Assembly (NCBI GenBank): GCA_964013895.1
Contig: CAXGYF010000002.1
Coordinates: 35,316-99,315 of the forward strand
Origin: an uncultured Acidimicrobiaceae bacterium
GTDB lineage: Bacteria; Actinomycetota; Acidimicrobiia; Acidimicrobiales; MedAcidi-G1
DNA: 64,000 nt
Direction: 5' to 3'
Shown: positions 17,612-34,371 of the stretch, in pieces
Layout of the letters: each line of letters begins with the position of its first letter
Position numbering within the stretch: position 1 is the first letter of the stretch
The notes under the pieces: model-generated
The model's input: only the letters and a program-made list of their open reading frames with translations
Told to the model about the DNA's origin: nothing
The model's database searches: none
Position numbers and translations under genes: made by a program

Positions 17612-18238
17612 TTAGGACCAAACTTTTGTCAATGATTCAACATCGGTCAATGTTGCTAAAACCGCAAGAGTGTTTTCAATAATAGTTTTTCCATATTCGA
17701 TCGGTACACCTGCTACAGCATCTATAGGGACTACAACTTGATAACCATTGTTTATTAGATCGAAAACACAATTTTGCACAGCAACGTTTAAGGAGACTCC
17801 ACTTACAATCACCGTAGAAATTTCTTCGTTTCTGAGCAAAGCGTCTAATTCGGTTCCCGATGTCGGTGAGAGACCATGAAATCTAGGAAGAAGGACATCT
17901 AGTTCGCTATCGAAACCTACTTCTTTTATCGGTTCTACTGTTTCAGTATCAGGCAACTGTTTTATAGGTGAGCGGCGAGCGGCTCCAAAAAGTCGAGCAT
18001 TATTATTTGACCCCCAACCATCTTCTCTTACCATTGCTAATCCATGAATTACTTTTATTTCTGAATTTCTTGCTGCTTGTGCGAGTTTTCCTAAGTTAGC
18101 AATAATGTTTTTAGAGGCTTCTGCAAGAGCTGGAAAACTAGACTTTTCGCCTATAACTCCATTTTGGCACTCCACCAAAAGTAAGGCAGTGTGATTAGGA
18201 TCTACTAAATCTTTAATTTCAAGATGTTCGCTACTCAT
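17612..18238 (-). CDS. Isochorismatase-fold protein with non-canonical active site
   Basis: TALLLVECQNG, VIVSGVSLNVAVQN and GYQVVVPIDAVAG. Confidence 0.82.
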   Translation of the reverse strand: MSSEHLEIKDLVDPNHTALLLVECQNGVIGEKSSFPALAEASKNIIANLGKLAQAARNSEIKVIHGLAMVREDGWGSNNNARLFGAARRSPIKQLPDTETVEPIKEVGFDSELDVLLPRFHGLSPTSGTELDALLRNEEISTVIVSGVSLNVAVQNCVFDLINNGYQVVVPIDAVAGVPIEYGKTIIENTLAVLATLTDVESLTKVWS

Positions 18239-20591
18239 ATTTGACTCCAGAATCTCTCAATAAGTCAATCCATCTTGTTCCCGCATCAGGAGCTAGTTCT
18301 CCAGGAACATAAGTAACCGAAATTAAACTTCCTTTGTAAGGAAATGGTCCGTGCCGCTCATACAAGGGCCATGAAACTGGCGATCTCCTGTCAATCCCAA
18401 CATCTATTCCTTCAAATGGAGCCATTGCAGTCAGCACAGGAAGATCAGGAGTCTCTGCAACTATGGATCCATCTACATATACCTGCGTATTCCATTTCAA
18501 ATCTCCCATCGCGTCGACTCTCAATTTTATTTCTTTAACACCGTCCGCAAGACTCCCGCAAGAAACCTCCGTCATAGTCCCATACCCGTTATGAACATGA
18601 TGAAGCTCACCGTTTTCTATGTACATGGAGTATCCACCTCCCTGATCCCCGTGAGCCACCAGTATCCCTTCGTCGCCTTTCTTATAATCGAGTGAAATTA
18701 TGATTTCAAAAGAACGAAAATTTATCAACTTGAGAGATCTGTATCTTTCTACTGTCGGCGTGCCAGGCAAGAAAGACTGAGTTTGTTCAAGTTCTTCCTC
18801 CCATTTCGGGCGGACGATATTTTTTAAACCTGTACCTTCATCAAGTGGAAACACCTGATTGGCCCAGGCTTCTTGTTCCCAAATATCTTTCAACTCAGCT
18901 AAAACTTCAGGGTGTGTATCCGACAGGTCGTTTGTTTCTGTCGGGTCGGTTGATAGGTCGAAAAGTTCCCATTTGTCTTCTGCGAATGAAGTTCGTTTCT
19001 GATGACAGGTTACTGCTGACCATCCTTCGCGATAAATACCCCTGTGCCCTTCTTGCTCGTAATACTGCAATGTGTGGGTGCTTTCAGCTTCTTCATTATT
19101 CATTGATTCAAGAAAGCTACTACCGTTAGGTGGTAACAACTTTTGACCTTTTCGTTCGTCTGGTATGTCAATTTCGAGCATTTCAAGAATCGTGGGCAGA
19201 AGATCAGTCACATGTTGATATTGCTTTCTGATTGATCCCGCGTCCTCCAAACCATCAGCTTTTGAAATTACTAAGGGAACTTGGTGGCCACCTTGATGTG
19301 TGTTTGTTTTATACAAGCGGAATGGAGTATTAGAAGCCATTGCCCATCCATTTGGATAATGAGCGAGTGCTTGTGGCCCCCCTAGTAGGTCCAACCTTGA
19401 ATTATCAGCTTCTACCGAATCAAGAGGATTCTCTCTAACTTGGCTGATCAGGGTTCTAAAATATGCCGAAGTTCCATTATCTAGGCCTTCCCTGCTCGCT
19501 CCATTATCCGAAGTGAAAACAACAACGGTGTTTTCCCATTCTCCCATAGCTTCTAATTCTTGTCGTAGCCTTCCAAAATTCTGGTCGACGTTGTCAACCA
19601 TTGCTGCATAAATCTCCTGATAACGGGCAAAAGTCTCTTTTTCCATTTCACTTAATTCATCCCATGGGCTTACTGCATAGTTCCTTTCTGTATTCCTTGG
19701 AGGTAGAACTGTTCCCTCGGGGATCAAACCAGATGAAATCTGGCGTTCGTAACGCTCTGCTCTGATTTTGTCCCATCCTCTGTTATACATTCCTTCATAT
19801 TTCTTTATGTCTTTTTCAGGAGCTTGAAGAGGGGCGTGTACAGCTCCATGGGAGAAATACATAAACCACGGTTTTTTTGGATGCCCTGTCCTCACTTCCT
19901 TTATCATGTCCAGGGCATGATCTGTTAGGTCATTAGTAAAAAAGTAGTTTTCTGGATACGAGTCAACCTGCACTACATGATTGTCTTCATATAAGCGATG
20001 CGGTTGATGAAAGTTTGTAAAACCATCAAGTATCCCGTAATAACGATCAAAGCCGCGTTGACAAGGCCAAGAATTTTTTGGGCCAGCTTCTGAAAGAGTG
20101 TTATCTGGCGTTAAATGCCACTTGCCAACCATAAGGGTTGCCCATCCATTGTCTGAAAGAATCTCAGCCAAAGTTGCAGTATCGCTTCGAATGGATGCTG
20201 CATAGCCAGGAAAACCAGGATCTGCGTGGCAGACCGTAGCTAATCCAGCTAAATGAGAATTTAAACCAGTAAGTAATGAAGCACGTGTTGGGGAACACAT
20301 TGGATTCACATGAAAATTTGTATATCGAATACCTTCGGCTGCTAGAGCATCCAAATTAGGTGTTTCAATCTCAGAACCATAAGAACCTAGATCTGAAAAA
20401 CCAAGGTCATCACATAGAACTATAAGAATGTTTGGTGCGTCTTCGTGAGGCTCATTTCTTTTTGGCCAAGCTGGTGAGGAAGTCGCGTGTAAGCGTCCGA
20501 TTTCTCCTTCGAATCCCGAGTACGCTTTATTCAAATTTTTTTCTTTGTCATTTCTGCCGGTTATTTTTTTGAACATGTCAGTTGCTTTCAT
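18231..20591 (-). CDS. Arylsulfatase (long mycobacterial AtsA/B/D type)
   Basis: DDLGF, formylglycine motif CSPTRASLLTG, GKWH, SDNG and a C-terminal LamG-like extension. Confidence 0.93.
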   Translation of the reverse strand: MKATDMFKKITGRNDKEKNLNKAYSGFEGEIGRLHATSSPAWPKRNEPHEDAPNILIVLCDDLGFSDLGSYGSEIETPNLDALAAEGIRYTNFHVNPMCSPTRASLLTGLNSHLAGLATVCHADPGFPGYAASIRSDTATLAEILSDNGWATLMVGKWHLTPDNTLSEAGPKNSWPCQRGFDRYYGILDGFTNFHQPHRLYEDNHVVQVDSYPENYFFTNDLTDHALDMIKEVRTGHPKKPWFMYFSHGAVHAPLQAPEKDIKKYEGMYNRGWDKIRAERYERQISSGLIPEGTVLPPRNTERNYAVSPWDELSEMEKETFARYQEIYAAMVDNVDQNFGRLRQELEAMGEWENTVVVFTSDNGASREGLDNGTSAYFRTLISQVRENPLDSVEADNSRLDLLGGPQALAHYPNGWAMASNTPFRLYKTNTHQGGHQVPLVISKADGLEDAGSIRKQYQHVTDLLPTILEMLEIDIPDERKGQKLLPPNGSSFLESMNNEEAESTHTLQYYEQEGHRGIYREGWSAVTCHQKRTSFAEDKWELFDLSTDPTETNDLSDTHPEVLAELKDIWEQEAWANQVFPLDEGTGLKNIVRPKWEEELEQTQSFLPGTPTVERYRSLKLINFRSFEIIISLDYKKGDEGILVAHGDQGGGYSMYIENGELHHVHNGYGTMTEVSCGSLADGVKEIKLRVDAMGDLKWNTQVYVDGSIVAETPDLPVLTAMAPFEGIDVGIDRRSPVSWPLYERHGPFPYKGSLISVTYVPGELAPDAGTRWIDLLRDSGVKYE

Positions 20592-21804
20592 CTGTTCTTA
20601 TACGCAAAGCGTAAGCCAAAAGAATCATCATTAGACAAACTGCGATCATCAGCCACAAGACTCCGTCGTACCCAAAAGCTGAATCAGCCATTCTTCCTGC
20701 TGATACTGGCCCTAGGACGCCGCCAATTTCCGCGCTAGCAAACCAAAGACCGTAAGCTGTTCCCATTTGTTTTACATTCAATTTAGGTGATTCCATCAGG
20801 GCGAGAATTACTAGAGGTATTAATGCTGATCTAGAACCGGCAATCATTACTGATATCGGAGTCGTATAGCTCGGCAGAAACATAATTGCGAGCAAAGAGA
20901 TAACAATTACTAAAAGGATGCAAATGAGAATAGAAGAAAAGTTTTCTCTTCGTGTCCGCGAAGGGATTAATAGTGATACAAGAATTCCTATTCCCAAACT
21001 TGCTGCTGTCCAGTTTGATGCCGCCATTGAAGAAAACCCAATATGTTCTCTAAGGATTTCAGGCATCCACCCCCCCAGACCATGAGATAAAAAGAATACG
21101 GTGACCCCTAGAAGAAATATGACTTTAATTTCTTTTGAAACGACTATAGATTTCCAAATTAGGATCGTTTTGCTTCCATTTTTTTTCCCAACATGATCTT
21201 TTTGAATTTTAAATTCAGCTATAAATATCCAAAAAATCAAGGCAAAAGCGATTACGAATGTTTCAATTGCAATTGTCCAACGCCAGGAGTTTGTTAAAGG
21301 CATCAAAAGTGAATTGGACATGACGAGGACTAAAATGCTCCCGACTGCCGGGGCAGCTGTGTAAGCACCAACCGCAAACTTTCTTTCCCTTTCATTCGTG
21401 AACCAAAAACCAACTGCAGTCGGAGCGCAAGCAGATACTAAAGGACCTCCAATACCAAAAAGAGCAACTGCTATACATAAAGTTGTCAGATCATTAGCAA
21501 AAGAACGTGTGATCCCGCTTATAAAAACCAGAGAAGCTCCAATTGTCATTGAATACCCAACGCCTAAACGATCTATTACCCGTCCCGCTATTGGAGATGT
21601 GACTATATAGACCAATTGCCATGTCCCTAATGCAATTCCTATTTCCCCACGAGTCAGATTCAAATCTGACCGTATTTCTCCTACAAGAGGGGCTAGCGAC
21701 ATAGCCACCATGCCGAATCCAAGGTACACAAAGAAAACACCAGAAAAAATAACCCATCTGTATGAATCGTTGTGTACAGGTTCTTGAAGAAATTTCTTAC
21801 GCAC
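20578..21804 (-). CDS. MFS transporter (CynX/NimT-like)
   Basis: About 12 TMs; motif A GRVIDRLG; start moved from 21843 to GTG 21804. Confidence 0.85.
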   Translation of the reverse strand: MRKKFLQEPVHNDSYRWVIFSGVFFVYLGFGMVAMSLAPLVGEIRSDLNLTRGEIGIALGTWQLVYIVTSPIAGRVIDRLGVGYSMTIGASLVFISGITRSFANDLTTLCIAVALFGIGGPLVSACAPTAVGFWFTNERERKFAVGAYTAAPAVGSILVLVMSNSLLMPLTNSWRWTIAIETFVIAFALIFWIFIAEFKIQKDHVGKKNGSKTILIWKSIVVSKEIKVIFLLGVTVFFLSHGLGGWMPEILREHIGFSSMAASNWTAASLGIGILVSLLIPSRTRRENFSSILICILLVIVISLLAIMFLPSYTTPISVMIAGSRSALIPLVILALMESPKLNVKQMGTAYGLWFASAEIGGVLGPVSAGRMADSAFGYDGVLWLMIAVCLMMILLAYALRIRTDESN

Positions 21805-21854
21805 GTCAAATAATCTCACAACAATGAAGAAATGATCGTGCATTAGAACAAAAC

Positions 21855-22730
21855 TTGCGCGATCCTGTTCTAGTGAATGAATTAATCTTAGATTATGACT
21901 CTTTAGATTCTTTGAACAGACCAGTCCTTATTGTGGCTTTTAAAGGGCTTTTTGATGCCAGTGGTTCAGCCACCTCTGCTCTTGAATGGCTAATCGAAAA
22001 GTCAGAGTCTGAGAATATTGGAGAAATTGACTCTGAAACTTTTTTTGACTTCACTCAAGAAAGACCTCTAATCAGTTTCGATAAAAATGGGGAAAGAGCT
22101 CTTACATGGCCTACAAATAAAATAGTAGCAATGAAAACCAAAGAAAATGAAAGAGACCTTCTTGCTATTTCTGGAGTTGAACCACACCTTCGCTGGCGCA
22201 CATTTAGCGAACTTTTAATAGAACTAGTTAACAAATCAAATGCTGAATCTGTTCTTACACTCGGGTCAATGGTCGGAATGACGCCACACAGTCGACCTTT
22301 GACGGTCACAGGGAGCAGTACTAATCCAGAGCTTGCAGAACGCTTGCATCTGGAAAAACCTTCTTATCAAGGGCCAACTGGAATAGTTGGCGTGCTTCAC
22401 GATGCACTCGACCGTTCAAAGATTCCAGTTATATCACTTCGAGTTTCAGTTCCTCACTATGTTCCAGATGCACCTAATCCAAAAGCGACAAGAGCTCTTC
22501 TTAGACGCTTTGAACAAGTAACTGGAGTTACGACAGAGTATGAAGAACTTGATGGACCCGCTGCTGATTGGCAAAAACAAGTAGATTCTGCCGTGGCCAG
22601 TGACGATGAAATAACTGCCTATGTAACCCGCTTAGAAACAGCTATTGATGAAGATGAAAACCTTTTACCTTCAGGAGATGATCTGGCCGCTGAATTTGAA
22701 GCTTTCCTTCGTGAACAAGACCCAGATTAA
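21855..22730 (+). CDS. PAC2 family (proteasome assembly chaperone-like) protein
   Basis: AFKGLFDA, FFDFTQERP, GVEPHLRWR, YQGPTGIVG, VPHY and acidic C-terminus AEFEAFLR. Confidence 0.9.
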   Translation: MRDPVLVNELILDYDSLDSLNRPVLIVAFKGLFDASGSATSALEWLIEKSESENIGEIDSETFFDFTQERPLISFDKNGERALTWPTNKIVAMKTKENERDLLAISGVEPHLRWRTFSELLIELVNKSNAESVLTLGSMVGMTPHSRPLTVTGSSTNPELAERLHLEKPSYQGPTGIVGVLHDALDRSKIPVISLRVSVPHYVPDAPNPKATRALLRRFEQVTGVTTEYEELDGPAADWQKQVDSAVASDDEITAYVTRLETAIDEDENLLPSGDDLAAEFEAFLREQDPD

Positions 22731-22748
22731 GATCGATACAGGAGAAAT

Positions 22749-23450
22749 ATGAATCAGAATAATACCATGGACCTCAAAGAGCTTCTAGCAGTAGCCGAAC
22801 AAGCTGGCCGGTCATTAATAGATTCTGCTGAAAAAGATCTTGACGCAACTGTCCCTACTTGTCCGGAATGGAACAACTTAGAGCTTCTTAACCATATGAA
22901 AATGGTGTGGTGGTTCGCGGCTTCGCAAATCAATGCCGGAAACGAAACTGAAAGAACTGCTCCATCTGGTGAAATGAAAAACTCGCCCTTAGAGCAACTT
23001 GAAACTTTATTAAAAGCATGTCAGGTCAATGATTTTTCGTCTCCTTGCTGGTCGTGGACGACTAATAAAACTGTTGGTTTTTGGGTTAGACGCATGGCTC
23101 ATGAAAACACGGTTCACAATTGGGATTCAGAAGGAACTTTAGACTCACGTTCTTCAATTTCGACGTTATTAGCTCTTGATGGAATCGAAGAGAAACTCTT
23201 TCTGTATCCTGCAGATACCGAATTTCCTACTGCTTCAATTCACTTGCATTGCACTGACTGTGAAGGTGAATGGATGCTGGCTCTATCAAGTGGTGAACTT
23301 GAAATAAAAAGAGAACACGGTAAAGGCGATGCAGCTGTAAAAGGCAGAGCGGAAGATATCCTTCTTTACCTTTGGGGTCGAGGGCAGGAAAATCTTGAAT
23401 GCTTCGGAGATGAAGAGGTGATTAATACTTGGGCACGCATTGGCCCTTAA
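22749..23450 (+). CDS. MDMPI/DinB-superfamily (mycothiol-dependent maleylpyruvate isomerase-like) protein
   Basis: VPTCPEW...LLNH, FWVRRMAHENTVHNWD, DGIEE and an SCP2-like C-terminus. Confidence 0.85.
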   Translation: MNQNNTMDLKELLAVAEQAGRSLIDSAEKDLDATVPTCPEWNNLELLNHMKMVWWFAASQINAGNETERTAPSGEMKNSPLEQLETLLKACQVNDFSSPCWSWTTNKTVGFWVRRMAHENTVHNWDSEGTLDSRSSISTLLALDGIEEKLFLYPADTEFPTASIHLHCTDCEGEWMLALSSGELEIKREHGKGDAAVKGRAEDILLYLWGRGQENLECFGDEEVINTWARIGP

Positions 23451-24644
23451 TCAGGAAAGTTCCGCTCCTACAATGCCTACGAAAGAGACCATCTCACCTG
23501 GATAACCACCCAAGTTATGTACAAGTGCTTGCTGGGATTGTTCAAGAGAAATTGACCTATCAGCTGGCGCCTCTCCTCTTAGTTGCAACCATGTCTCATA
23601 GAACATTCTTAGTCCACTGGCACCCACTGGGTGACCGAAGGCTTTAAGTCCTCCATCAGTATTTACAGGAATTTCCCCATCTATATCGAAAGACCCATCA
23701 AGCACTTCCTGCCATGCTTTACCTTTTTCACAAAAACCCAAGTCTTCCATAAGAATCATCTCTGTTGGGGTGAAACAGTCATGAACTTCCGCCATGGCTA
23801 GTTCTTTTCTCGGTTCCGTAATCCCAGCTTGCATATAGGCGTCTTCAGCTGCAACGGCGCATTCGGGAAGAGTGGTGAAATCGAAATCTGGATCCACTAA
23901 ACCGCTGCTATCTCCAGCAACTACAGAAAGCGCCTTTATATATAAAGGTTTATCAGTATATTTATGAGCATCTTCGGCTCTAACTACTATGGCAGCCGCT
24001 GCCCCATCAGCAACGCCGGCACAATCCATAACTGAGAGGCGTCCAGCAATCGATGGCATTTCACAGATCTTCTCAGCCGAAATCTCACGTCGAAATTGAG
24101 CTAGTTCATTTCTTGACCCATTGAAATGGTTTTTTTGAGCTATGCGAGCCACGACGTATCTGAGCTCGTCTTCATCAACTCCGTATCGCTTCGCATACGC
24201 AGGGATAATCAGACTAAACATGGCTGCTGCTGTCAATGTCCGATTTGTGCCATCAGTCGGAACAGGAAAAGCATTGAGACCTTGGTAACCGCTATCTTTT
24301 ACTTTTTCTGCTCCTAGCGCCATTGCAGAGTCATACGCACCAGAAGCTACTGCGTAACAAGCTTGACGCAGAGACTCAGACCCGGTGGCACAATAATTTT
24401 CTACACGGGTAACAGGTTTGCCTGAAAGTCTCAAAGGTGTAGCTAAAGCTATTCCTGATGCCGCGGACTGCGAAGTTCCGAACCAATAAGCATCTATCAG
24501 GTCAGTCTCAAGACCCGCTGATTTTGTAGCTTTTTCCGATGCCTCGATAATGAGATCGTCAAGTGATTTGTCCCAATGTTCACCAAAATTCGTACAACCC
24601 ATTCCTACAATTGCGACTTGATCTTTAATGCCATGTGACGCCAT
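23451..24644 (-). CDS. SCP2-type/archaeal-type thiolase (PhlC-like)
   Basis: VENYCATGS (Cys), EVHDCFT, GHPVGASG and HNLGG. Confidence 0.9.
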   Translation of the reverse strand: MASHGIKDQVAIVGMGCTNFGEHWDKSLDDLIIEASEKATKSAGLETDLIDAYWFGTSQSAASGIALATPLRLSGKPVTRVENYCATGSESLRQACYAVASGAYDSAMALGAEKVKDSGYQGLNAFPVPTDGTNRTLTAAAMFSLIIPAYAKRYGVDEDELRYVVARIAQKNHFNGSRNELAQFRREISAEKICEMPSIAGRLSVMDCAGVADGAAAAIVVRAEDAHKYTDKPLYIKALSVVAGDSSGLVDPDFDFTTLPECAVAAEDAYMQAGITEPRKELAMAEVHDCFTPTEMILMEDLGFCEKGKAWQEVLDGSFDIDGEIPVNTDGGLKAFGHPVGASGLRMFYETWLQLRGEAPADRSISLEQSQQALVHNLGGYPGEMVSFVGIVGAELS

Positions 24645-26060
24645 TTAAGACTTCCCTCTTTCTCGCCTTATCGGTCTTGCTTTCCAAAAGTAGTTGTGGA
24701 TTCCATCAGCTGTATACAAACAACGAAACGTCATTTCTACCCGATCACCGATTTCAATTTTCTCTGGGTCTGCGTCTGCAAGTTCGACGGGAAGTCGCCC
24801 CCCATCTTCGAAATTAACTACAGCGAAAACTACAGGAGAGTTTGGAGAGTAAACCAAATTATCAACTGTGAAAGTCTCGATCGTTCCTATCGAATCAGCC
24901 ATAGGTAACTGTTCCATGTCATCAATACCGCCGCCTTTTATACCGATGCGAGATGGTGGCATGTGGACTATTCCTGTCGTTGCATCTTTGGATGCAACAA
25001 AACCCATTTTCCAATCATTTCGTCTCATAGCAGCTGATGAGGAAGGCCTAGTCGGAGAAGGGCGATTAGGGAGTTGACTGTCTAACAATCCACGCCATGA
25101 AAGATACTTACCATAGGGAACTGGTGACTGATTTTCTATTTGCTCAGAAACAGGAAAAGAATTTCTCCGATTTTCAATTTCTTGGGTGGTTCGAAAGAAA
25201 AGAATGTCGCAACCATCAGCTAGAACTATTAATGCAACTACCTCATCTGGTTTTGCTTGATCAAGAAAATTAGCCAGAAGAAGTGACGGCTGGGCGGCAC
25301 CTGCATTCCCAATCTTTCCAGTCAAATCATCAGCTACTTCCACATTAAGTAAAGGAGTTGATTTAGCTACAGCACGAGAATGAAGCCCTGATATAAGTGC
25401 AAAGTTTATATCTTCAGTTTTCATGCCGACTTTCTTTAAGGCTTCATTCCAGGCTCTGTCAACCAGTGGCTTATATGCTTGTTCCCCAAACCGCTCTTCC
25501 CATACTTGAGAATAAGAACTTCCTGGCACGCGCCACCTATCAGTAAAATCAGAAGTTATTGAAACTCCACCTAGGTACTCTGCGAGTAAAGCCCCTTGTT
25601 CGTCTGTTCCGATTAATAGAGCTGTAGCAGCATCTCCACCGGAAGATTCTTCAGTTCCGCCTGATGGCCCTGTTCTTAAATCCGCAGCAACTACCAAAGT
25701 CGAGAGATCACTTTCTAAAGCATTGGATAAAGCACCTACTGCCGACCGGGTTGAATTCCCGAAGTCGACTACTTCTACAAAATCATCCAACTGAAGGGCT
25801 GAGTGTATATTTGTTGCGTTTGTTTTATCCATGTATGCAGGAACAACAGTTGAGAAGGACAGCTTTTTCGGATTCATGTCTGATCCTTTTAAAGCACTTC
25901 GGGCAGCCTCAACTCCCATGGTGGTGGTATTTTCATCATAAGATGCAACGGATCTAGAGCCCTTATTTGACCCTTTACCTGTGAATTCAACTATTGATGA
26001 ACGCAGCAGGCAACCTCTGGGTATGTAGGCGCCATATGAAATAATTCCATGGACTCCCAT
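24645..26060 (-). CDS. HMG-CoA-synthase-like domain fused to a DUF35 OB-fold
   Basis: GIISYGAYIP, DENTTTMGVEAA and GGDAATA, then a C-terminal OB-fold GTIETFTVD...IGDRVEMTFR...NYFWKARP. Confidence 0.85.
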   Translation of the reverse strand: MGVHGIISYGAYIPRGCLLRSSIVEFTGKGSNKGSRSVASYDENTTTMGVEAARSALKGSDMNPKKLSFSTVVPAYMDKTNATNIHSALQLDDFVEVVDFGNSTRSAVGALSNALESDLSTLVVAADLRTGPSGGTEESSGGDAATALLIGTDEQGALLAEYLGGVSITSDFTDRWRVPGSSYSQVWEERFGEQAYKPLVDRAWNEALKKVGMKTEDINFALISGLHSRAVAKSTPLLNVEVADDLTGKIGNAGAAQPSLLLANFLDQAKPDEVVALIVLADGCDILFFRTTQEIENRRNSFPVSEQIENQSPVPYGKYLSWRGLLDSQLPNRPSPTRPSSSAAMRRNDWKMGFVASKDATTGIVHMPPSRIGIKGGGIDDMEQLPMADSIGTIETFTVDNLVYSPNSPVVFAVVNFEDGGRLPVELADADPEKIEIGDRVEMTFRCLYTADGIHNYFWKARPIRRERGKS

Positions 26061-26176
26061 TATTAAGCCCCCAATTGCCTATTATCTGAATTAGTAAGAA
26101 TCAACTTAATCCAATCCAATGAACCTTAAGGAAGTATCCTAGGCTTAAATCTTTATTCTCCCGACACAAGGAGTTC

Positions 26177-27430
26177 TTGATGGATTTAGGAGATATATCA
26201 AATGAAGACGCCGTCAAGTACGGAAAACCACTTGATGGTGTGAAAATACTTGCGGCCGAGCAGATGCAGGCCCTACCATTTGCTACTCAATTACTAGCCC
26301 GCTTGGGCGCTGAAGTAGTGAAAATTGAGCACCCAATCAAAGGTGAGTCTGCACGTGGTTCTGTACCTTTCATGAACGATCCATATGGGAATCCTGTAGG
26401 AGCTACTTTCCTTCGAAATAACTTAAATAAAAAAAGTGTTGGAATTGATCTCTCGACATCAGAAGGTCAGGATCTTTTTCTTCGTTTAGTTCCAAATTTT
26501 GATGTAATCGGCGACAATTTTAAACCAGGAACCATGAAAAAATTTGGACTTGATTACAAATCAATCAACTCTAAGTATCCAAATGTGATAGTTATATCTA
26601 TTTCAGGTTTTGGGAACTCCGGAGACTCGCCTTATCAGAACTGGCCAGCTTACAATTCAGTGGCCGAAGCAATGTCAGGCCTTTACGATTTCAAGCGCCG
26701 TGACGGAGAACCCCCCATAGTTAATCCGATGGGTGCAGTAGGTGATATTGCAACGAGTTTATTCGGTGTTATCGGGATACTTGCTGCTCTTAGACATAGA
26801 GAAGATACAGGTAAAGGTCAATACATTGATATAGCCATGTTTGATTGCATGGCGTCTTTAGCTGATGTTGCTATAAATTTTCATTCAATGGGAATCCCAC
26901 GAGAGCCAAACCCAGCACCTTATGTCATTGCTCCCTTTCGCTGTAGTGACGGCTATTTAGTTCTTCAATTTGTTCGGGAGCATCAGTTCGAGAACCTCGC
27001 AAATCTGATCGACAAAACTGACTGGATCGGAGACCCGCGTTTTCAAGAGAGGTCAGGATGGGGAGAACATTTACATTCAGACATTATTCCTGCATTAGAA
27101 GAATGGTCTAAAAACCGAACTAGATCTGAGACTTCAAGTTTGCTCGCTGAGGCAAACGTGGCATCGGGGCCTGTTTTAACTACCTCAGAAGTGGTTGAGG
27201 ACCCACACTTAGAAGAAAGAAATATGATCGTGTCATTGCCTAGGACCGATGAGATAAGCGACCCTGTTCTTCTACCCGGAAATCCTATAAAAATGTCAAA
27301 AGTAGCTGAAGGGCCCGAAATCAGAGTTCCATGGGTTGGAGAGCATACAAATCAGGTTCTTACCGAAGAACTAGATCTCAGCGTTACAGAACTAGAAGAT
27401 CTTAGAAAAATGGGCGTTATTAGCCAATAA
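26177..27430 (+). CDS. Family III CoA-transferase (CaiB/BaiF)
   Basis: PLDGVKIL, GAEVVKIE, NLNKKSVGIDL, NFKPG, catalytic VGD and GEHT. Confidence 0.93.
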   Translation: MMDLGDISNEDAVKYGKPLDGVKILAAEQMQALPFATQLLARLGAEVVKIEHPIKGESARGSVPFMNDPYGNPVGATFLRNNLNKKSVGIDLSTSEGQDLFLRLVPNFDVIGDNFKPGTMKKFGLDYKSINSKYPNVIVISISGFGNSGDSPYQNWPAYNSVAEAMSGLYDFKRRDGEPPIVNPMGAVGDIATSLFGVIGILAALRHREDTGKGQYIDIAMFDCMASLADVAINFHSMGIPREPNPAPYVIAPFRCSDGYLVLQFVREHQFENLANLIDKTDWIGDPRFQERSGWGEHLHSDIIPALEEWSKNRTRSETSSLLAEANVASGPVLTTSEVVEDPHLEERNMIVSLPRTDEISDPVLLPGNPIKMSKVAEGPEIRVPWVGEHTNQVLTEELDLSVTELEDLRKMGVISQ

Positions 27431-27432
27431 AT

Positions 27433-28716
27433 TCATTCCTCAATATATTTATCTAGAAGCTGAGCGACTGTCATCTCTACCGGAATTTTTTCAACTCCGA
27501 TTACGCGATCAATCACTTCTTGCATGTTGTATATTCTTCGCTCCTGATAACACAAAGGCGTTCCGTCATAGGTTGGGGACTCCATCGCTTTCTGCATTGC
27601 ATCAAGATTCCAAACGTCTTCATCTATTACTCCAGCAAATTCAGATATCCGTTGTTTCCATGCTTCGGGCGGGTCACCATCTCCCCAATCTGGAGCGTAG
27701 TGATATATACGAATCTTAGTTTTATCAATACCTGCGGGGAAAAATAGCATGACAGGAAAGCCTGTAGCCGCTAGGGGCGTAATGAAATTTGGAAAGATCG
27801 TAAATGAATAACTAGTGCAATGGACAATAGGATGAACGGTTGAAATGTTTTCAAGCCCTAACGGGTCTTTCACTGTCTTAAAATCTTTCCATGATTCCAT
27901 TCCAAGCTTCTCTACCATTTGTTTTGAACGTGGAACTACCATTCTGGAATTACCGTGTTTTAAAAGACCCATCGTTCCACCGCGCGAGTCAAGACTTGTC
28001 CATCCCCCACGATCATGTATGAAGCGAAAATGGTAGACCTCTTGAAATGCTTCGATTGCAACTTTCCAGTTGCAATTGACTTCACGGTGATCTGTGCCCA
28101 CTAAACGAAGATTCTCACATTGATACTGTTTCATTTCTTCAGGGATTTTTCCTAAGAAATCAATCAGAGGAGATGCGTTTGGATTCACGTTGATCCAGAT
28201 CCATCCCCCCCATGTGTCACAACTTATTTCTGGTAATCCTCGGTCTTCCTTACATAGGTCAACGAAATCCCTTTCGTCTGGTACAGCTAAAAGTTCGCCG
28301 TTATCTATTCCGTATGTCCACGAATGGTACTGACACTGTAAACGACGTATGGTGCCTTTTTTCTCTCTTACAACCGGTGCTCCGCGATGTCTGCAGGTAT
28401 TTGAAAAACATCGAATTTTATTATCGTTCCCTCTTACTACTATTAATGGGATTCCGGTCTCTTCAAATAGAAAGTAGTTTCCTGGATCGGGTATGTCTTC
28501 AACTCGACCCGCTGCAAGCCAACTGTTATTCCATAAATATTTTTGTTCTAGCTCATAAAAATCTTCGTCCGTATAACGCGCCGAAGGGATATCAGGAAAC
28601 TGAGGGAAATTTTCTGGTGGGGCTTTTCTGTCTAATTCATACTCCATGTCTGCAACTAGTCGATCAACTAATTTTTGATCAAGTAAAAATTCACTCATAA
28701 TTTTCCCCTTAAGCAA
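27433..28716 (-). CDS. Rieske non-heme iron oxygenase alpha subunit
   Basis: NTCRHRG...CQYHSW Rieske cluster; EAFQEVYHFRFIH and ED iron ligands. Confidence 0.93.
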   Translation of the reverse strand: MLKGKIMSEFLLDQKLVDRLVADMEYELDRKAPPENFPQFPDIPSARYTDEDFYELEQKYLWNNSWLAAGRVEDIPDPGNYFLFEETGIPLIVVRGNDNKIRCFSNTCRHRGAPVVREKKGTIRRLQCQYHSWTYGIDNGELLAVPDERDFVDLCKEDRGLPEISCDTWGGWIWINVNPNASPLIDFLGKIPEEMKQYQCENLRLVGTDHREVNCNWKVAIEAFQEVYHFRFIHDRGGWTSLDSRGGTMGLLKHGNSRMVVPRSKQMVEKLGMESWKDFKTVKDPLGLENISTVHPIVHCTSYSFTIFPNFITPLAATGFPVMLFFPAGIDKTKIRIYHYAPDWGDGDPPEAWKQRISEFAGVIDEDVWNLDAMQKAMESPTYDGTPLCYQERRIYNMQEVIDRVIGVEKIPVEMTVAQLLDKYIEE

Positions 28717-28782
28717 GCCTAAATCGCATAAACACTAAATTAAAACTTTAAGAACGGAATGTTCGTTCGAGGTCTCTGTTGT

Positions 28783-29415
28783 TTATTTACAGAGCACCCC
28801 TGTCCCAGCAATACCGCAATAGCCATTCGGATTCTTATGTAAGTATTGTTGGTGGTATTCCTCCGCGTAGTAGAAATTTTTTTGAATTTCAACTGTCGTT
28901 TTAATCTCATCAAAACCAGAAGCAAGTAACGACCCTTCATAAGCCTTAAGGCTTTCATCAGCTTCGACTAACTGCTCTTGATCCGTTACCCAAATTCCGG
29001 ACCTGTATTGTGTACCGATATCGTTTCCTTGCCGCATGCCTTGCGTTGGATCATGACTCTCCCAAAAAACCTTTAACAAATCTTTTAAGTCAAGCAATTC
29101 TTTCTGAAAGACCACCAACACAACCTCTGCGTGTCCAGTTAGCCCAGAGCAAACTTCTTCGTAAGTCGGATTGGGTGTATGACCACCGCTGTATCCAACT
29201 GCTGTAACCCATACCCCATCAAGTTCCCAAAAAAATCTTTCAGCTCCCCAAAAACAACCCATTCCGACTACCAATGAATCCATCTCTTCAGAAAAGGGCG
29301 GGGTCATGTTATTACCGTTAAAAGTGTGAACCCCTGATATAGAAGTTGGCGTTGATCGGCCGGGTAGACAATCTTCGCTCTTGGGTATGTTTAAAAGCTT
29401 CTGGTGAAAAGACAT
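28783..29415 (-). CDS. msrA: Peptide methionine sulfoxide reductase A
   Basis: GCFWGAE, GHAEVV, RQGNDIGTQYRS and AEEYHQQY...GYC. Confidence 0.97.
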   Translation of the reverse strand: MSFHQKLLNIPKSEDCLPGRSTPTSISGVHTFNGNNMTPPFSEEMDSLVVGMGCFWGAERFFWELDGVWVTAVGYSGGHTPNPTYEEVCSGLTGHAEVVLVVFQKELLDLKDLLKVFWESHDPTQGMRQGNDIGTQYRSGIWVTDQEQLVEADESLKAYEGSLLASGFDEIKTTVEIQKNFYYAEEYHQQYLHKNPNGYCGIAGTGVLCK

Positions 29416-29427
29416 GGTTAAATTCTC

Positions 29428-30249
29428 CTAAATTGTATAGGCAAGATTCTCTGCGATTCGTCTTGCTACTTCCAGATCACCGCCTAGGAGCACTCGCCCA
29501 TCTTCTATATATCTTGTTGAATCGTCACGTCCTCCTGTTAAGGCAGTGAAATCCAATGACGACATTGTCAGGGTACTAGTCGGATCTTCGTCAAAAGATT
29601 CTACTAATGAGGCCCTCCCATCACTTACTTCGACTCTTAGGGTTCTCTCGACAGGTCCTGAAATGATAATTTGGATACGGCTACCTTCTGGGGCTCCACC
29701 TTTTTTACCCACTATGTATCCAGCAGCGGAAGAGACTTCGTCAATTGCTATTTCAGCCGGCAAACCATCTTCGTCTCCGGGAAGACCTAGAGGTTCTCTG
29801 CAATCCTGCATGTGCAACCATGCGTCATAAACTCTAATTTGCATAAACCTTCCGTATGGCGCTTCGCCGGCTGGTGTCCATCCAACAGCTTGAAACTCTT
29901 CGTCACTCATTTCTGATAGGACATTAAATCTTTCAGCTGTTACTTCGTTAAACAAAGCAAGTATTTCACTACCTTCCTTTTCACGAAAACTATGTATCGC
30001 TTTTTCGTTTGCTTCGCCTACAGGATTTTTTACATGATCGGCCGACACCTCTACTTCTGGTAGTTTCTGACCACTTAACATGTATTCGCCCCCGACAAGA
30101 TGAGATAGGTTGTCTTTGACAGTCCAACCAGGAAGACGGCTATAAGTTTGCCATTGGCTTTCGTTCAATTGTGAGCCAAACTGACTCCATTTTCCCCAAA
30201 TTTGATTGAGTCCTTCAACAATCTGGGTTTTGTTTATACTCATTTTCAC
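29428..30249 (-). CDS. MDMPI/DinB-superfamily protein with SCP2-like C-terminus
   Basis: PGWTVKDNLSHL, IRVYDAWLHMQD. Confidence 0.85.
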   Translation of the reverse strand: MKMSINKTQIVEGLNQIWGKWSQFGSQLNESQWQTYSRLPGWTVKDNLSHLVGGEYMLSGQKLPEVEVSADHVKNPVGEANEKAIHSFREKEGSEILALFNEVTAERFNVLSEMSDEEFQAVGWTPAGEAPYGRFMQIRVYDAWLHMQDCREPLGLPGDEDGLPAEIAIDEVSSAAGYIVGKKGGAPEGSRIQIIISGPVERTLRVEVSDGRASLVESFDEDPTSTLTMSSLDFTALTGGRDDSTRYIEDGRVLLGGDLEVARRIAENLAYTI

Positions 30250-30255
30250 TCCTAT

Positions 30256-30942
30256 TTAAGGTGTAGGGTTCGCTCTTGTCTCCCAATCTCTTGCTTTGAC
30301 GTAAGGATTGAATGCGTCGCTGATCATTTCAAGATCGGAGGGCATTTTGGGTCTTTGCATCTCGTACAAATTAGGAAATTCCAGCCACCCGGTTATTAAA
30401 TGCCATAATTTATCAGCCTTCTCACCTGTAGGTGGATTAATTAAAACCGGTCCGAAAATCCTTTCATTTTGACTAAAAACAAGTGTTGGAACCCCGAAAC
30501 CTCCCAAGGAAACAACAAGTTCGTGATCTTTTTTCACATCATCGTGTGTTGTTGGGTCGGCAAGTGCTTCTTCAACGATCTGAGGGTCTTGATCCATTTC
30601 TTTCAAAAGTAAGCGAGCTACATCGGGATCATGGGGCTTGCGTCCTTCAATGTGGAGAGCTGTTCCTGATTTTAGATACCAAGCGTCATTTAGGGCTGGG
30701 TCAATTCTTTTGAGAAAAGCTCCTATTCTCATCATTGACCACCCATAAGACCATTCACGCTCCCATGGGTGTTTTTTACCTTCTTCGTGATTAATTTCTT
30801 CAAGACTAAAAAAACACCAGTCAACTTCTATGTTTAACCTGTCTCTAACTTCGCGCATCCAGATCGATGTTTGATACGCCCAAGGGCACATGACGTCAAA
30901 GTGAAATGCCACATGGCTCGGACTGTTTTCATTTTCCATCAA
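30256..30942 (-). CDS. DsbA-fold thioredoxin-like protein (Rv2466c mycothiol-dependent reductase-like)
   Basis: FHFDVMCPWAY single Cys, GVPT, IFGPV and LYEMQRP. Confidence 0.78.
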   Translation of the reverse strand: MMENENSPSHVAFHFDVMCPWAYQTSIWMREVRDRLNIEVDWCFFSLEEINHEEGKKHPWEREWSYGWSMMRIGAFLKRIDPALNDAWYLKSGTALHIEGRKPHDPDVARLLLKEMDQDPQIVEEALADPTTHDDVKKDHELVVSLGGFGVPTLVFSQNERIFGPVLINPPTGEKADKLWHLITGWLEFPNLYEMQRPKMPSDLEMISDAFNPYVKARDWETRANPTP

Positions 30943-32424
30943 TTACTCCTTTTCTTGCAATTTATGACGTAAAACCTTACCAAGTGCGTTCCTAGGTAAT
31001 TCTTTCACAATTACCAATCTTTTAGGAATTTTGTAGGGGGCTAAATATTGTGAAGCATGTTTTCTGACTTCGGCGATATTAATACTGTTAATTCCTTTTT
31101 CCATCACAATCCAAGCTACGACTTCCTCTCCCCACTCTTGTGATTTGACTCCTGATACTGCCGCTTCAGCAATTTCTGGGTGTGCTTGCATGACTTCGTC
31201 AACTTCTTGTGGGTAAACATTTAGTCCACCAGTAATTATTAGCTCTTTTATACGACCGTTAATCGTCACATAGTTATCGTCAGATACCTCTGCTATGTCT
31301 CCTGTTTTAAACCACCCTGAGTTAAAAGAATCATTAGTTTCTTTCTGTTTAGACCAATACCCTTTGAATACAGATTCACCACGGACTAATACTTCCTTGC
31401 TTTCTTCCTCTATTTGAATCTCTACACCTGGCAAAGGAAATCCAACTGAGCCAGCACGTCGTTCACCTATATAAGGGTTGGAAATCGTAAGCATCGTCTC
31501 GGTGGTTCCGTAACGTTCCAGTACATCAACTCCTCCTTTGTCTTTTAATTGTTGATGTAAATCTGCTGGTAGAGGTGCAGAGCCAGAAACACATAAACGC
31601 AATGAGGCTAGCTGACTGATTCTTTCATCTTCAACAAGTCTTTGATACATGGTTGGGACTCCAAAAAACATCGAACAATTATTCTCAGCTATTTCAGAAA
31701 ATACCAAATCTTTGTCGAAACCTTCCTGCAGAACAGCTGAGCCTCCGACTAGCAATGTTCCGTGTAAACCTATACCCATTCCATGAATATGGAATAAAGG
31801 TAGACATAGCAAAAGACGGTCTGACTCTGTCCACTCCCATGCTCTAGCGACTGAAAGGGCTCCAGCTAATAACGATCTCTGGGTGTGGGTAGCTCCTTTG
31901 GGTTTGCCAGTAGTTCCTGATGTGTATGCGATCAAGGCCGGGTCTTCTGGTTTAGCAAGATCCAAATCTGGATTGGGTCCGCTTCTTGTTTCAACTGCTG
32001 TGGAAGAGACAAATAATTCAGAATCGATTGAATTTAGAAGTTTGTGCCATTCCTCTTGATCTACTAAGGCTGCTCGTGGTTTCGAATCTTCAATTAGAAA
32101 TGCTAATTCTGTTTCCGTGTATGAGATATTTACAGGCACAACAACAAGACCGAGTCTTAAACATGCGACGTGAGAAATGACTAAATCTAGCGAATTTTCT
32201 CCAGCGATTAGAACACGATCTCCGGGGAGTAGCCCAGAATTAGCTAGGTTAGATGCTGTTTTGGAAGTCAGATCTAGAAAACTTCCTCGATCTATTTCAC
32301 GACCATTGAAAGAAAAAAGTTTTCTTTCGGGTTCTATTTCTAAAGTTTTTACCCAAGACCCCACAAGGGTTTCTTCGTCTGGTATCCGTAATTTATGCCC
32401 TGATATTACAAGTTGAGTTCCCAT
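30943..32424 (-). CDS. Acyl-CoA synthetase (AMP-binding, MatB-like)
   Basis: YTSGTTGKPKG, ERYGTTE, FKTGD and PRNALGKV. Confidence 0.92.
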   Translation of the reverse strand: MGTQLVISGHKLRIPDEETLVGSWVKTLEIEPERKLFSFNGREIDRGSFLDLTSKTASNLANSGLLPGDRVLIAGENSLDLVISHVACLRLGLVVVPVNISYTETELAFLIEDSKPRAALVDQEEWHKLLNSIDSELFVSSTAVETRSGPNPDLDLAKPEDPALIAYTSGTTGKPKGATHTQRSLLAGALSVARAWEWTESDRLLLCLPLFHIHGMGIGLHGTLLVGGSAVLQEGFDKDLVFSEIAENNCSMFFGVPTMYQRLVEDERISQLASLRLCVSGSAPLPADLHQQLKDKGGVDVLERYGTTETMLTISNPYIGERRAGSVGFPLPGVEIQIEEESKEVLVRGESVFKGYWSKQKETNDSFNSGWFKTGDIAEVSDDNYVTINGRIKELIITGGLNVYPQEVDEVMQAHPEIAEAAVSGVKSQEWGEEVVAWIVMEKGINSINIAEVRKHASQYLAPYKIPKRLVIVKELPRNALGKVLRHKLQEKE

Positions 32425-32541: not shown

Positions 32542-33753
32542 ATGGAATTCGGTATTTTCAGCAACGGTTACATACCTGGACCGGCTGCCCATGACACAGA
32601 GTCCGAACATACGGAACTAATGCGTGAAGCTAGTTACGGGGTCTTAGCTGATAAAAACAACTGGAAATATATGTGGTTTGGCGAGCACCATGCTCTTACT
32701 GAATACAGTCACATGTCAGCCCCATCACCGTTGATGGGATGGGTAGCAGCACAAACAGACTACATACATCTTGGTTCGGCAATCACGAGTTTGCCGACGA
32801 ACAAAGAGCATCCGGTTCGCATCGCCGAAAGAGCTGCAATGCTTGATCATGTAACCGAAAATCGCTTTGAATTTGGAACTGGGCGCGGTGCAGGAAGCCA
32901 TGAACTTCTAAGTTTTAACGTCACAGATCCTAGTGAAACTAAAGCACAGTGGGATGAGGTTATTCGCGAGATACCTCGAATGTGGGAACAGAAAGACTAT
33001 GACTTTAAAGGAGAATTTTTTACTGTACCGACTCCACACAATATCCTTCCTAAACCATACGGTAAAGGCCACCCCCCTCTTTGGGTGGCTTGTGGGAATC
33101 CGCCAACATTTGCAAAAGCAGGATCACTTGGCATTGGTGCCATAGCATTCAACTTCGAACCTATTCATAACCTCAAAGGGCGTGTTGACGCATACAAAGA
33201 GGCTATTCAGGATCCAGCAGAACAAATTGGACAGTTTAAAAACGACAATGTCATGATGACTAACGCTGTTATTTGCCTTGAAAATCGAGATGAAGCAAGA
33301 GCTATCGCTAAAACAAAAGGTAGAGGCTACCTAGTAACCATGGTCAACATGTATCACGATACGATGCCCAAATCCCCCGACGCTGTGACTTGGCCTGACT
33401 CACCAATAGATCCGAACTGGACAGATGAAATGCTTGACTGGGCAATCGGCGAGGGATACATGCTCTGCGGAACACCTGAAGAGGTGTGTGAGCAACTGGT
33501 TCGTTACCAAGACGTAGGTTGCGATCAGGTCGTGTTCGGTTTACCAATCGAAGGAATGGCTCATGAACAGGTCCTGGAAATGCTCGAAATTTTTGGGCAA
33601 CGTGTGATTCCTGAATTCGACAAAGACCCTATTCATTCAACAGATCGCTATAGAGCAGAAGCGCAAAGAAAGTTTCCTGACTTTCAGTATGAACTTCCAG
33701 AAGACATATCGGTTTCTGTTTTGCCTTCGAATGCCCTATTGCCACTCGGATAA
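32542..33753 (+). CDS. LLM (luciferase-like) flavin/F420-dependent oxidoreductase
   Basis: WFGEHH, IHLGSAI, HPVRIAERAAMLD, RFEFGTGRG, HPPLWVA and CGTPEEV. Confidence 0.9.
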   Translation: MEFGIFSNGYIPGPAAHDTESEHTELMREASYGVLADKNNWKYMWFGEHHALTEYSHMSAPSPLMGWVAAQTDYIHLGSAITSLPTNKEHPVRIAERAAMLDHVTENRFEFGTGRGAGSHELLSFNVTDPSETKAQWDEVIREIPRMWEQKDYDFKGEFFTVPTPHNILPKPYGKGHPPLWVACGNPPTFAKAGSLGIGAIAFNFEPIHNLKGRVDAYKEAIQDPAEQIGQFKNDNVMMTNAVICLENRDEARAIAKTKGRGYLVTMVNMYHDTMPKSPDAVTWPDSPIDPNWTDEMLDWAIGEGYMLCGTPEEVCEQLVRYQDVGCDQVVFGLPIEGMAHEQVLEMLEIFGQRVIPEFDKDPIHSTDRYRAEAQRKFPDFQYELPEDISVSVLPSNALLPLG

Positions 33754-34371
33754 GTGCCCCGAAGTAGCGTCAAAACGCGCGAACAACTGCTTTTAGAAGC
33801 TGAAAGGCTTTTTGCGCTAAAAGGAATCTGGCAAGTTCAAGTTCAAGAAATTGTAGTAGCTGCGGATCAACGTAATACCTCCGCTGTTACATATCATTTT
33901 GGTTCAAGAGAAGGTCTGCTTGAAGGAATACTCACCTCACACGGAAGCCCTATCGATGAACGTAGAGGGGAACTTCTCTTGTCTCTTGATCAAAAATCCT
34001 CTACTAGAGCACTAGTGAATTCTCTGGTTGTACCGATGGTTAGCTGCCTGGAAACCCAAAGCGGCTGTCGTTACCTTCAAATAATTTCCCAGTTGTCAGA
34101 TCAGTTCTCAAATTGGAGGAGTCTTTCTGGAGATCTCTCTTCTCCTCACCTTTCTAAAGCACTGGAATTACTTGAGAGTCGTCCAGTGTTCTTACCAATC
34201 CCCGTGCGACAAGAACGCCTTATTGCAATGATTCAATTAATGACCTCCTCTCTTTCAGAGAGAGCTCGTTCTTTGGAAGCTGGAGTGCAAATGGTGTTAG
34301 GTAATTCAGAATATGAAGAAAACTTGATTGACATGCTCGTGGGAATCCTTGAAGCCCCTGTAGGCAACTAA
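33754..34371 (+). CDS. TetR/AcrR family regulator
   Basis: N-terminal HTH ending AVTYHFGSREGLL; starts immediately after the LLM stop. Confidence 0.88.
   Translation: MPRSSVKTREQLLLEAERLFALKGIWQVQVQEIVVAADQRNTSAVTYHFGSREGLLEGILTSHGSPIDERRGELLLSLDQKSSTRALVNSLVVPMVSCLETQSGCRYLQIISQLSDQFSNWRSLSGDLSSPHLSKALELLESRPVFLPIPVRQERLIAMIQLMTSSLSERARSLEAGVQMVLGNSEYEENLIDMLVGILEAPVGN

Follow-up and report, generated by a model that had tools for sequence, protein, structure and literature searches.

Assemblies that join a thiolase, a 3-hydroxy-3-methylglutaryl-CoA synthase (HMGS) or HMGS-like protein, and a DUF35 protein include the archaeal mevalonate-pathway complex, the bacterial acyltransferases PhlABC and MucABC, and a fused type of which one member, from Pseudomonas fluorescens, was characterised in 2026. 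A mining survey recovered 1,030 bacterial loci encoding HMGS-like proteins, acetyl-CoA acetyltransferase (ACAT) and DUF35, 1,001 of them without secondary-metabolism neighbours (PMC12960953, Nat Commun 2026). In the P. fluorescens complex, PfACAT/HMGS-DUF35, the HMGS-like protein has a dead catalytic tetrad and is fused to DUF35, and the ACAT subunit retains its Cys, HDxF, and GHx motifs; the complex cleaves acetoacetyl-CoA thiolytically, makes neither acetoacetyl-CoA nor HMG-CoA from acetyl-CoA, performs no C-acylation, and is inactivated by an H294Y substitution in the HDxF motif (PMC12960953). PhlC and MucB are set apart by loss of HDxF and by remodelled acceptor pockets, and do not cleave acetoacetyl-CoA; the thiolase subunit of MucABC is insoluble and inactive by itself (PMC12960953). 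In aldolases of the SCP2 fold, Gly replaces the nucleophile and YDHF or YDCY replaces HDCF, and every DUF35 domain of solved structure binds zinc through a C4 or C3H1 set of ligands (PMC12329534). Here we describe a pair of genes from a 64,000-nucleotide stretch of DNA of an uncultured Acidimicrobiaceae bacterium (contig CAXGYF010000002.1; the whole stretch is hereafter called the window). One gene encodes P0002, a fusion of an HMGS-like domain with DUF35, and the other encodes P0001, a thiolase. We propose, with a probability of about 0.72, that the two would form a heteromeric degradative thiolase of the ACAT/HMGS-DUF35 type, working with a divergently encoded CoA-transferase, CoAT1. The pair is a further member of this widespread enzyme type.

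The two genes lie exactly where the first-pass annotation of this DNA had placed them (Table 1), with no nucleotide between the TAA stop of the fusion gene and the ATG of the thiolase gene. A GAGGGA ribosome-binding site (Shine-Dalgarno) for P0001 sits inside the 3' end of the P0002 gene, and the start of P0001 is translationally coupled to the fusion gene. The genes are also in frame with one another, separated by a single stop (24642-24647), in the window and in 13 complete related loci (L001, L002, L008, L012, L021, L027, L042, L044, L048, L052, L063, L071, and L076); at these loci the loss of one stop codon would yield a three-domain HMGS-like/DUF35/thiolase polypeptide. The genome from which the window derives (1.73 Mb, 92% complete) holds one copy of the fusion.

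Comparison with PDB sequences using phmmer matched residues 5-325 of P0002 to archaeal HMGS (6esq_I, E 1.5e-18, 70 bits) and its HMGS-like part to PhlA (5m3k_A, E 5e-14; PhlA scores 50-55 bits) and MucA (E 1e-6). The protein falls below the cut-offs of all HMGS models (142 against 244 bits for PRK04262; 88 against 353 for another) and yields no PF08541 match. Its C-terminal part comprises a low-confidence linker (residues 326-352, with pLDDT <50 at residues 327-353), a Cys-less remnant of a zinc ribbon (residues ~353-378), and the DUF35 OB-fold (residues ~380-465); PF01796 matches residues 391-446 (E 6e-11), and the archaeal DUF35 chain 6esq_E matches residues 354-464 (E 1e-3). An AlphaFold2 (AF2) model of P0002 built from 20 homologues (pLDDT 76, pTM 0.82) was compared with solved structures using Foldseek, giving TM scores of 0.81 to the HMGS of 6esq, 0.79-0.80 to PhlA, and 0.76-0.78 to MucA.

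The residue state of the HMGS-like domain indicates that it has lost its original chemistry. In the Methanothermococcus thermolithotrophicus enzyme the catalytic tetrad is E82, C114, H238, and N270 (PMC12960953). The Glu position aligns in a deletion, at Val72 of P0002 (motif FSTVVPAY, residues 69-76); the Cys aligns with Thr104 (motif FGNSTRS, residues 100-106); and the His falls at or just before Ser224 in both HMMER alignments. The tetrad Asn is retained as Asn252 and is kept in 77% of the family. Across 177 family members, position 72 is V, A, T, or S and position 104 is V, L, A, Q, or T, never Glu or Cys. A catalytic Cys at a shifted position was considered and rejected by a column-wise Cys scan of the same 177 members: because no column of the fusion alignment exceeds 19% Cys, and 57 of the members have no Cys at all, a displaced nucleophile is excluded. 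The first-pass description of an HMGS-like domain that lacks both catalytic Cys and Glu and is fused to DUF35 thus survives alignment across the family.

Other positions of the same domain are strongly maintained. D99, R105, and R229 are ~100% conserved and H227 is 96% conserved in the family alignment. His227, considered as a candidate for the retained tetrad His, sits three residues after the canonical position of that residue, and the motif His227-x-Arg229 is near-invariant within the Acidimicrobiia clade and not conserved outside it. In the DUF35 part, the four zinc-ribbon Cys (CxxC...CxxC) are present in fusions from Rhodococcus, M. avium, Azoarcus, and Novosphingobium; all four are gone from P0002 and from the other Acidimicrobiia fusions, and the domain is predicted to be zinc-less throughout this clade.

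P0001 carries NYCATGS at residues 83-89 (Cys85), HDCF at residues 288-291, and GHP at residues 337-339 (His338), and none of the 68 partner thiolases departs from the Cys85, HDCF, and GHP motifs, in keeping with the Cys-His-His set that had been noted from the window's sequence. The protein matches the Pfam families Thiolase_N and Thiolase_C_1 and scores 566 bits (cut-off 403) against NCBIfam NF004810 (PRK06157, acetyl-CoA acetyltransferase), a cut-off that no other gene in the window's own genome passes. Its nearest solved relative is archaeal ACAT (6esq_A, 1.2e-57, 199 bits), and scores are lower to BbsB (118 bits), PhlC (97-103), and Ltp2 (80). Two further models return scores below their thresholds: the archaeal ACAT equivalog model (289 bits against 600) and the BbsB model NF053628 (124 bits against 750). 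As the complete thiolase signature is present in P0001, the pair belongs to the PfACAT/HMGS-DUF35 class rather than to the PhlABC type or to the aldolases. The proposed kinship to both the archaeal complex and PhlABC is borne out to the extent that the pair is related to both; both proteins, however, score closer to the archaeal complex.

Partner thiolases from fused loci of Actinomycetota and Pseudomonadota all pass the PRK06157 cut-off (575-686 bits), and in a phylogenetic tree they group with P0001 in one clade (97/96 support), to which none of the five other SCP2-type paralogues of the window's genome belongs. Shared PRK06157 membership and this single clade of partners together indicate that the two subunits have been co-inherited across phyla.

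The window's genome contains seven DUF35 domains, each beside an SCP2-type thiolase paralogue. At the site C4:63344-65869 (loci L086 and L092) the paralogue (C4:64754-65869) comes after a MaoC-DUF35 open reading frame and carries Gly at the position of the nucleophilic Cys and YDHF in place of HDCF; judged by these residues, it bears the ChsH2-Ltp2-type aldolase signature. Other paralogues in the genome read Cys with QDTE, Cys with YDLA, or YVPF with no Cys at the corresponding positions, and further DUF35/paralogue sites are C4:24928-27982, C8:2877-4321, C10:8598-10022, and C29:6515-7974.

The fusion family is large. Of 8,000 candidates scored, more than 6,500 proteins matched P0002, and relatives are encoded in at least 577 species genomes. 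Locus counts given below refer to the best 80 of these species genomes, nearly all of which are Acidimicrobiia; neighbourhoods were clustered after filtering by third-position GC content (GC3) against shadow open reading frames in high-GC loci, and since the clustering is still noisy these counts are approximate. Among the matches listed, the closest relatives come from marine metagenome-assembled genomes (MAGs) of the MedAcidi-G1 type, at 90% identity. A class-wide sample found the fusion in 48 of 126 high-quality Acidimicrobiia genomes and 38 of 82 genera. Homologues at 28-44% identity occur on plasmids of Rhodococcus, M. avium, sphingomonads, Variovorax, and Azoarcus, and the window fusion is ~30-34% identical to the proteobacterial members examined. 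Among 20 members, the most distant of them 52% identical in pairwise comparison, mean column identity is 68% and many residues are invariant, a pattern indicative of strong purifying selection on the fusion. In 77 of the 80 loci the thiolase gene is the first gene after the fusion. Members of the family are named "3-hydroxy-3-methylglutaryl CoA synthase" or "OB-fold domain-containing protein" in databases; the first of these names would mislead readers into assuming that Acidimicrobiia have a mevalonate pathway.

A third gene is inherited with the pair. CoAT1, a family-III CoA-transferase, has as its nearest PDB entries 4ed9, formyl-CoA transferases, and SUGCT (9br7), and is closest to Frc, YfdW, SUGCT, and mesaconate-type dicarboxylate transferases; to BbsE/F it scores only 91-106 bits. 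Orthologues at 50-59% identity are divergently adjacent to the fusion in ~35 of the 80 loci and lie within a few kilobases in others. Within a class sample of 151 genomes—in which related genomes are not independent—the orthologue is present in 41 of 49 fusion-positive genomes and in 0 of 102 that lack the fusion. CoAT1 is thus a true conserved partner of the fusion-thiolase pair, and the CoA-transferase named among the neighbours by the first-pass annotation is the one of those three that recurs across the family. The intergenic region that separates it from the pair is 98, 91, and 86% identical to its counterparts in L001, L002, and L003, where the flanking genes are 75-89% identical; it probably holds the promoters and an operator for a putative regulator. 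It contains the palindromes CCTAGG and CCTTAAGG. A search of this region for an RNA element gave no Rfam match, and its folding (z-scores -0.6 and 0.2) was no better than that of shuffled sequence.

These features suggest the following mechanism. CoAT1 would most likely make the CoA thioester of an organic acid, either a 3-oxo acid or a dicarboxylate, a substrate class that we only infer. P0001/P0002 would then cleave the resulting 3-oxoacyl-CoA with CoA to acetyl-CoA and a shorter acyl-CoA. P0001 would be the sole catalytic subunit: Cys85 would be acylated, His288 and Cys290 would act as acid/base, His338 would supply the oxyanion hole, and CoA would attack the acyl-enzyme. P0002 would be the non-catalytic partner, as its HMGS-like domain is without the Glu and Cys needed for acyl-enzyme chemistry. 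The fused DUF35 is predicted to clamp P0002 to the thiolase, a role played by unfused DUF35 proteins in the archaeal and PhlABC complexes, so that the dead HMGS-DUF35 protein would act as clamp and scaffold and probably contribute to the CoA site. The thiolysis product may in turn serve as CoA donor for the next round of CoAT1. Thiolysis of a 3-oxoacyl-CoA made by CoA transfer is, on the residues and gene content described, the most likely role of the pair. Pairings of 3-oxoacid CoA-transferases with thiolases are familiar from AtoDA/AtoB, PcaIJ/PcaF, and BbsEF/BbsAB, and the three-gene core described here fits the same logic.

A fuller version, possible though on the unlikely side, would make CoAT1, the fusion, and the thiolase a self-contained module for a 3-oxo acid or a dicarboxylate, in which the product re-charges the transferase and the pocket of the dead domain binds or hands over the thioester. 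D99, R105, H227, R229, and N252 would then be more than mere scaffold, acting through a shared CoA site and without the zinc ribbon on which every solved DUF35 complex relies. Apart from this fuller version, a family of this size that persists in a streamlined 1.7-Mb marine genome probably channels an appreciable flow of some dissolved organic acid.

Several points weigh against a degradative heteromeric thiolase. Orthology to the P. fluorescens enzyme is indirect, drawn from architecture, PRK06157 membership, and a clade shared with proteobacterial partners at ~30% fusion identity. An AF2 model of both proteins, predicted as one 869-residue chain read through the in-frame TAA from 13 paired read-through rows and 39 unpaired rows, reached a pTM of 0.62 and was without interface information. 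The dead HMGS-like domain is conserved more strongly than a passive scaffold might need. Additionally, a 3-hydroxyacyl-CoA dehydrogenase (HADH) is missing from most of the conserved Acidimicrobiia clusters, leaving a gap before the thiolase step.

This last gap bears on the alternative that survives best, though it is still unlikely: that the pair is a retro-aldolase or other lyase acting on a 3-hydroxyacyl-CoA, as in ChsE-ChsH-Ltp2 or Shy-Sal, which would explain the absent dehydrogenase. In ~30 of the 80 Acidimicrobiia loci a divergent operon combines two paired enzymes, an acyl-CoA dehydrogenase of PimC/PimD-like type and a hydratase of HadA/MaoC-like type, with a second CoA-transferase; dehydrogenase and hydratase pairs follow the gene logic of the igr operon, and 26 of 30 such loci have no short-chain dehydrogenase/reductase (SDR) or HADH gene within 8 kb. 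Convincing orthologues of this operon were not found in the window's genome, where the best candidates are 32-35% identical. The missing dehydrogenase may simply be encoded elsewhere, however, and the residues of the thiolase argue against a lyase: P0001 and its partners invariantly have Cys and HDCF where the known aldolases have Gly and YDHF or YDCY (PMC12329534), and the separate Ltp2-type paralogue in the same genome carries exactly the aldolase substitutions.

An obligate complex may also not exist, the thiolase being a stand-alone beta-oxidation enzyme and the fusion either serving an unrelated role or decaying as a relic. The modest pTM of the read-through model is compatible with this, but a relic is hard to reconcile with strong purifying selection, and the fusion is always paired with one specific, translationally coupled thiolase clade; the insolubility and inactivity of the isolated MucABC thiolase subunit (PMC12960953) argue in the same direction. 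We regard independence of the two proteins as very unlikely, and a thiolase bound to its fusion partner as the better account.

Comparable in its low standing, and slightly weaker, is the assignment originally given to the pair, a PhlABC-like acyltransferase. Under this assignment the thiolase Cys would pass an acyl group to an aromatic or carbon acceptor, possibly made by the nearby Rieske oxygenase, in a Friedel-Crafts C-acylation like that of PhlABC or MucABC. The fold of P0002 is similarly near PhlA and archaeal HMGS by TM score, and a Rieske oxygenase and an AMP-ligase are encoded within 7 kb. Yet all 68 partner thiolases retain HDCF, whereas loss of HDxF is the defining mark of PhlC and MucB; P0001 scores about twice as many bits to archaeal ACAT as to PhlC; and the characterised fused P. 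fluorescens complex is without such activity (PMC12960953). No PKS (polyketide synthase) or NRPS (nonribosomal peptide synthetase) genes occur near the pair in the region of the window examined. The Rieske oxygenase and AMP-ligase, correctly reported as neighbours by the first-pass annotation, co-occur with the pair only in the three closest MAGs (L001-L003) of the 80 loci. Because they are kept only there, they are rejected as pathway partners, and both are incidental to the fusion-thiolase pair. The Rieske protein is GbcA/CntA-like and without a beta subunit, and its best NCBIfam match, GbcA at 134 bits, is far below the cut-off. A C-acyltransferase is accordingly highly improbable, and the label does not fit; what the first-pass annotation had observed is confirmed, and its interpretation is partly supported. 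Equally improbable is a biosynthetic Claisen condensation of the kind known from the archaeal complex and from archaeal fatty-acid synthesis, for which the dead domain would pull the equilibrium by way of a shared CoA site: thiolases are reversible and the nearest solved relative is an archaeal acetoacetyl-CoA-forming thiolase, but once HMGS activity is gone there is nothing to drive the unfavourable condensation, the neighbourhoods are catabolic (CoA-transferases, acyl-CoA dehydrogenases, hydratases), and the fused P. fluorescens complex formed no such products from acetyl-CoA (PMC12960953).

Beyond Acidimicrobiia, beta-oxidation genes surround the plasmid-borne homologues of Rhodococcus, M. 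avium, Variovorax, and Azoarcus, a catabolic setting that, like the dehydrogenase-hydratase operon of Acidimicrobiia, speaks for the degradative reading; a CoA-transferase of some family is present in three of the five distant plasmid loci inspected. On the M. avium plasmid pP7a (L090, 1691-11548) and a plasmid of Variovorax sp. SRS16 (L101, 3167-17440), distant homologues of the fusion and thiolase lie in operons that encode both subunits (alpha and beta) of a ring-hydroxylating dioxygenase, enoyl-CoA hydratases, and either an AMP-ligase or a CoA-transferase. The ibuprofen ipf cluster comprises a dioxygenase, a CoA ligase, an SCPx thiolase, and DUF35, and both operons resemble it. From their content, the module may therefore serve removal of aryl-acid side chains in some hosts. 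An ipf-like logic built on the Rieske oxygenase and AMP-ligase was also considered for the window locus itself and ruled out, given their restriction to L001-L003 and the missing beta subunit.

Coordinates of the main features are collected in Table 1. The block at 27433-32424 (minus strand), followed by 32542-34371 (plus strand), is common only to the three closest MAGs; its minus-strand genes encode the Rieske oxygenase, MsrA, a DinB/MDMPI+SCP2 protein, an Rv2466c-like DsbA protein, and the AMP-ligase, after which come a luciferase-like monooxygenase and a TetR regulator on the plus strand. On the other side of the pair (window 18231-23450), PAC2 (proteasome-assembly-chaperone-like) and MDMPI-like genes lie directly downstream of the thiolase on the opposite strand, and a 786-residue sulfatase overlaps a major facilitator superfamily (MFS) transporter gene and an isochorismatase-family gene.

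Table 1. Features of the fusion-thiolase locus, in window coordinates.
Feature	Position	Strand	Basis
P0002, 471-aa HMGS-like/DUF35 fusion gene	24645-26060	-	
N-terminal HMG-CoA-synthase-like (thiolase-fold) domain of P0002, aa 1-325	25086-26060	-	PDB phmmer, Foldseek
C-terminal part of P0002: linker, zinc-ribbon remnant, DUF35 OB-fold, stop codon	24645-25085	-	PF01796, 6esq_E
P0001, SCP2/archaeal-type thiolase, 397 aa	23451-24644	-	PRK06157, 6esq_A
Divergent intergenic region, 116 bp, between CoAT1 and the fusion-thiolase operon	26061-26176	.	Cross-relative identity
CoAT1, family-III (CaiB/Frc-type) CoA-transferase	26177-27430	+	PF02515 at 2e-90
Rieske oxygenase	27433-28716	-	
AMP-ligase (acyl-CoA ligase)	30943-32424	-	

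Set against described systems, the pair is distinct from the DUF35-docked aldolases. ChsH1-ChsH2(DUF35)-Ltp2 and Shy-Sal likewise place an SCP2-fold enzyme on DUF35, and adjoin an acyl-CoA dehydrogenase pair and a MaoC hydratase pair as many relatives of the window locus do; Ltp2 and Sal, however, have no nucleophilic Cys and read YDHF or YDCY, whereas P0001 is a complete thiolase. BbsAB (7PXP) with BbsEF resembles the arrangement proposed for the window genes in combining an HDxF SCP2-type thiolase, held on a DUF35-type subunit, with a family-III CoA-transferase, for which the CoA donor is the thiolase product; BbsAB has no HMGS-like domain.

PhlABC (PpATase, 5M3K/5MG5; CsATase, 9SKH) and MucABC (9VBO/9VBT) share with the window pair a dead HMGS-like subunit, DUF35, and a thiolase-fold subunit bearing a Cys, but are made of three distinct polypeptides whose genes sit in type III PKS or NRPS-PKS clusters, and PhlC and MucB are without HDxF; the acceptor-pocket residues specific to PhlC are His56, Tyr124, Trp211, and Asp137-Thr132-His144. 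The archaeal thiolase/HMGS/DUF35 complex (6ESQ) is the best match of both window proteins in sequence and fold, with the thiolase motifs CxS/T, HDxF, and GHx and with DUF35 as connector. Its HMGS is active (E82, C114, H238, N270), its DUF35 is a separate C4-zinc protein, and its role, in the mevalonate pathway, is anabolic; in the window pair the HMGS-like domain is dead, the DUF35 is fused and predicted to be zinc-less, and the context is catabolic.

The closest counterpart is the PfACAT/HMGS-DUF35 type. Both consist of two adjacent, co-oriented genes away from PKS or NRPS genes, in both DUF35 is joined to an HMGS-like domain that has lost its catalytic residues, and Cys85, HDCF, and GHP of the window thiolase correspond to Cys, HDxF, and GHx of the P. 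fluorescens ACAT. The window fusion differs in retaining the tetrad Asn (N252), in its clade-specific invariant His227-x-Arg229, in the loss of all four zinc-ribbon Cys, and in its coupling to a specific family-III CoA-transferase; having no PF08541 match, it would also have been missed by the mining probe of the 2026 study (PMC12960953). To that description the locus adds a co-inherited family-III CoA-transferase, a DUF35 domain that appears zinc-less clade-wide, and the recognition that the Rieske oxygenase and ligase beside it are incidental neighbours.

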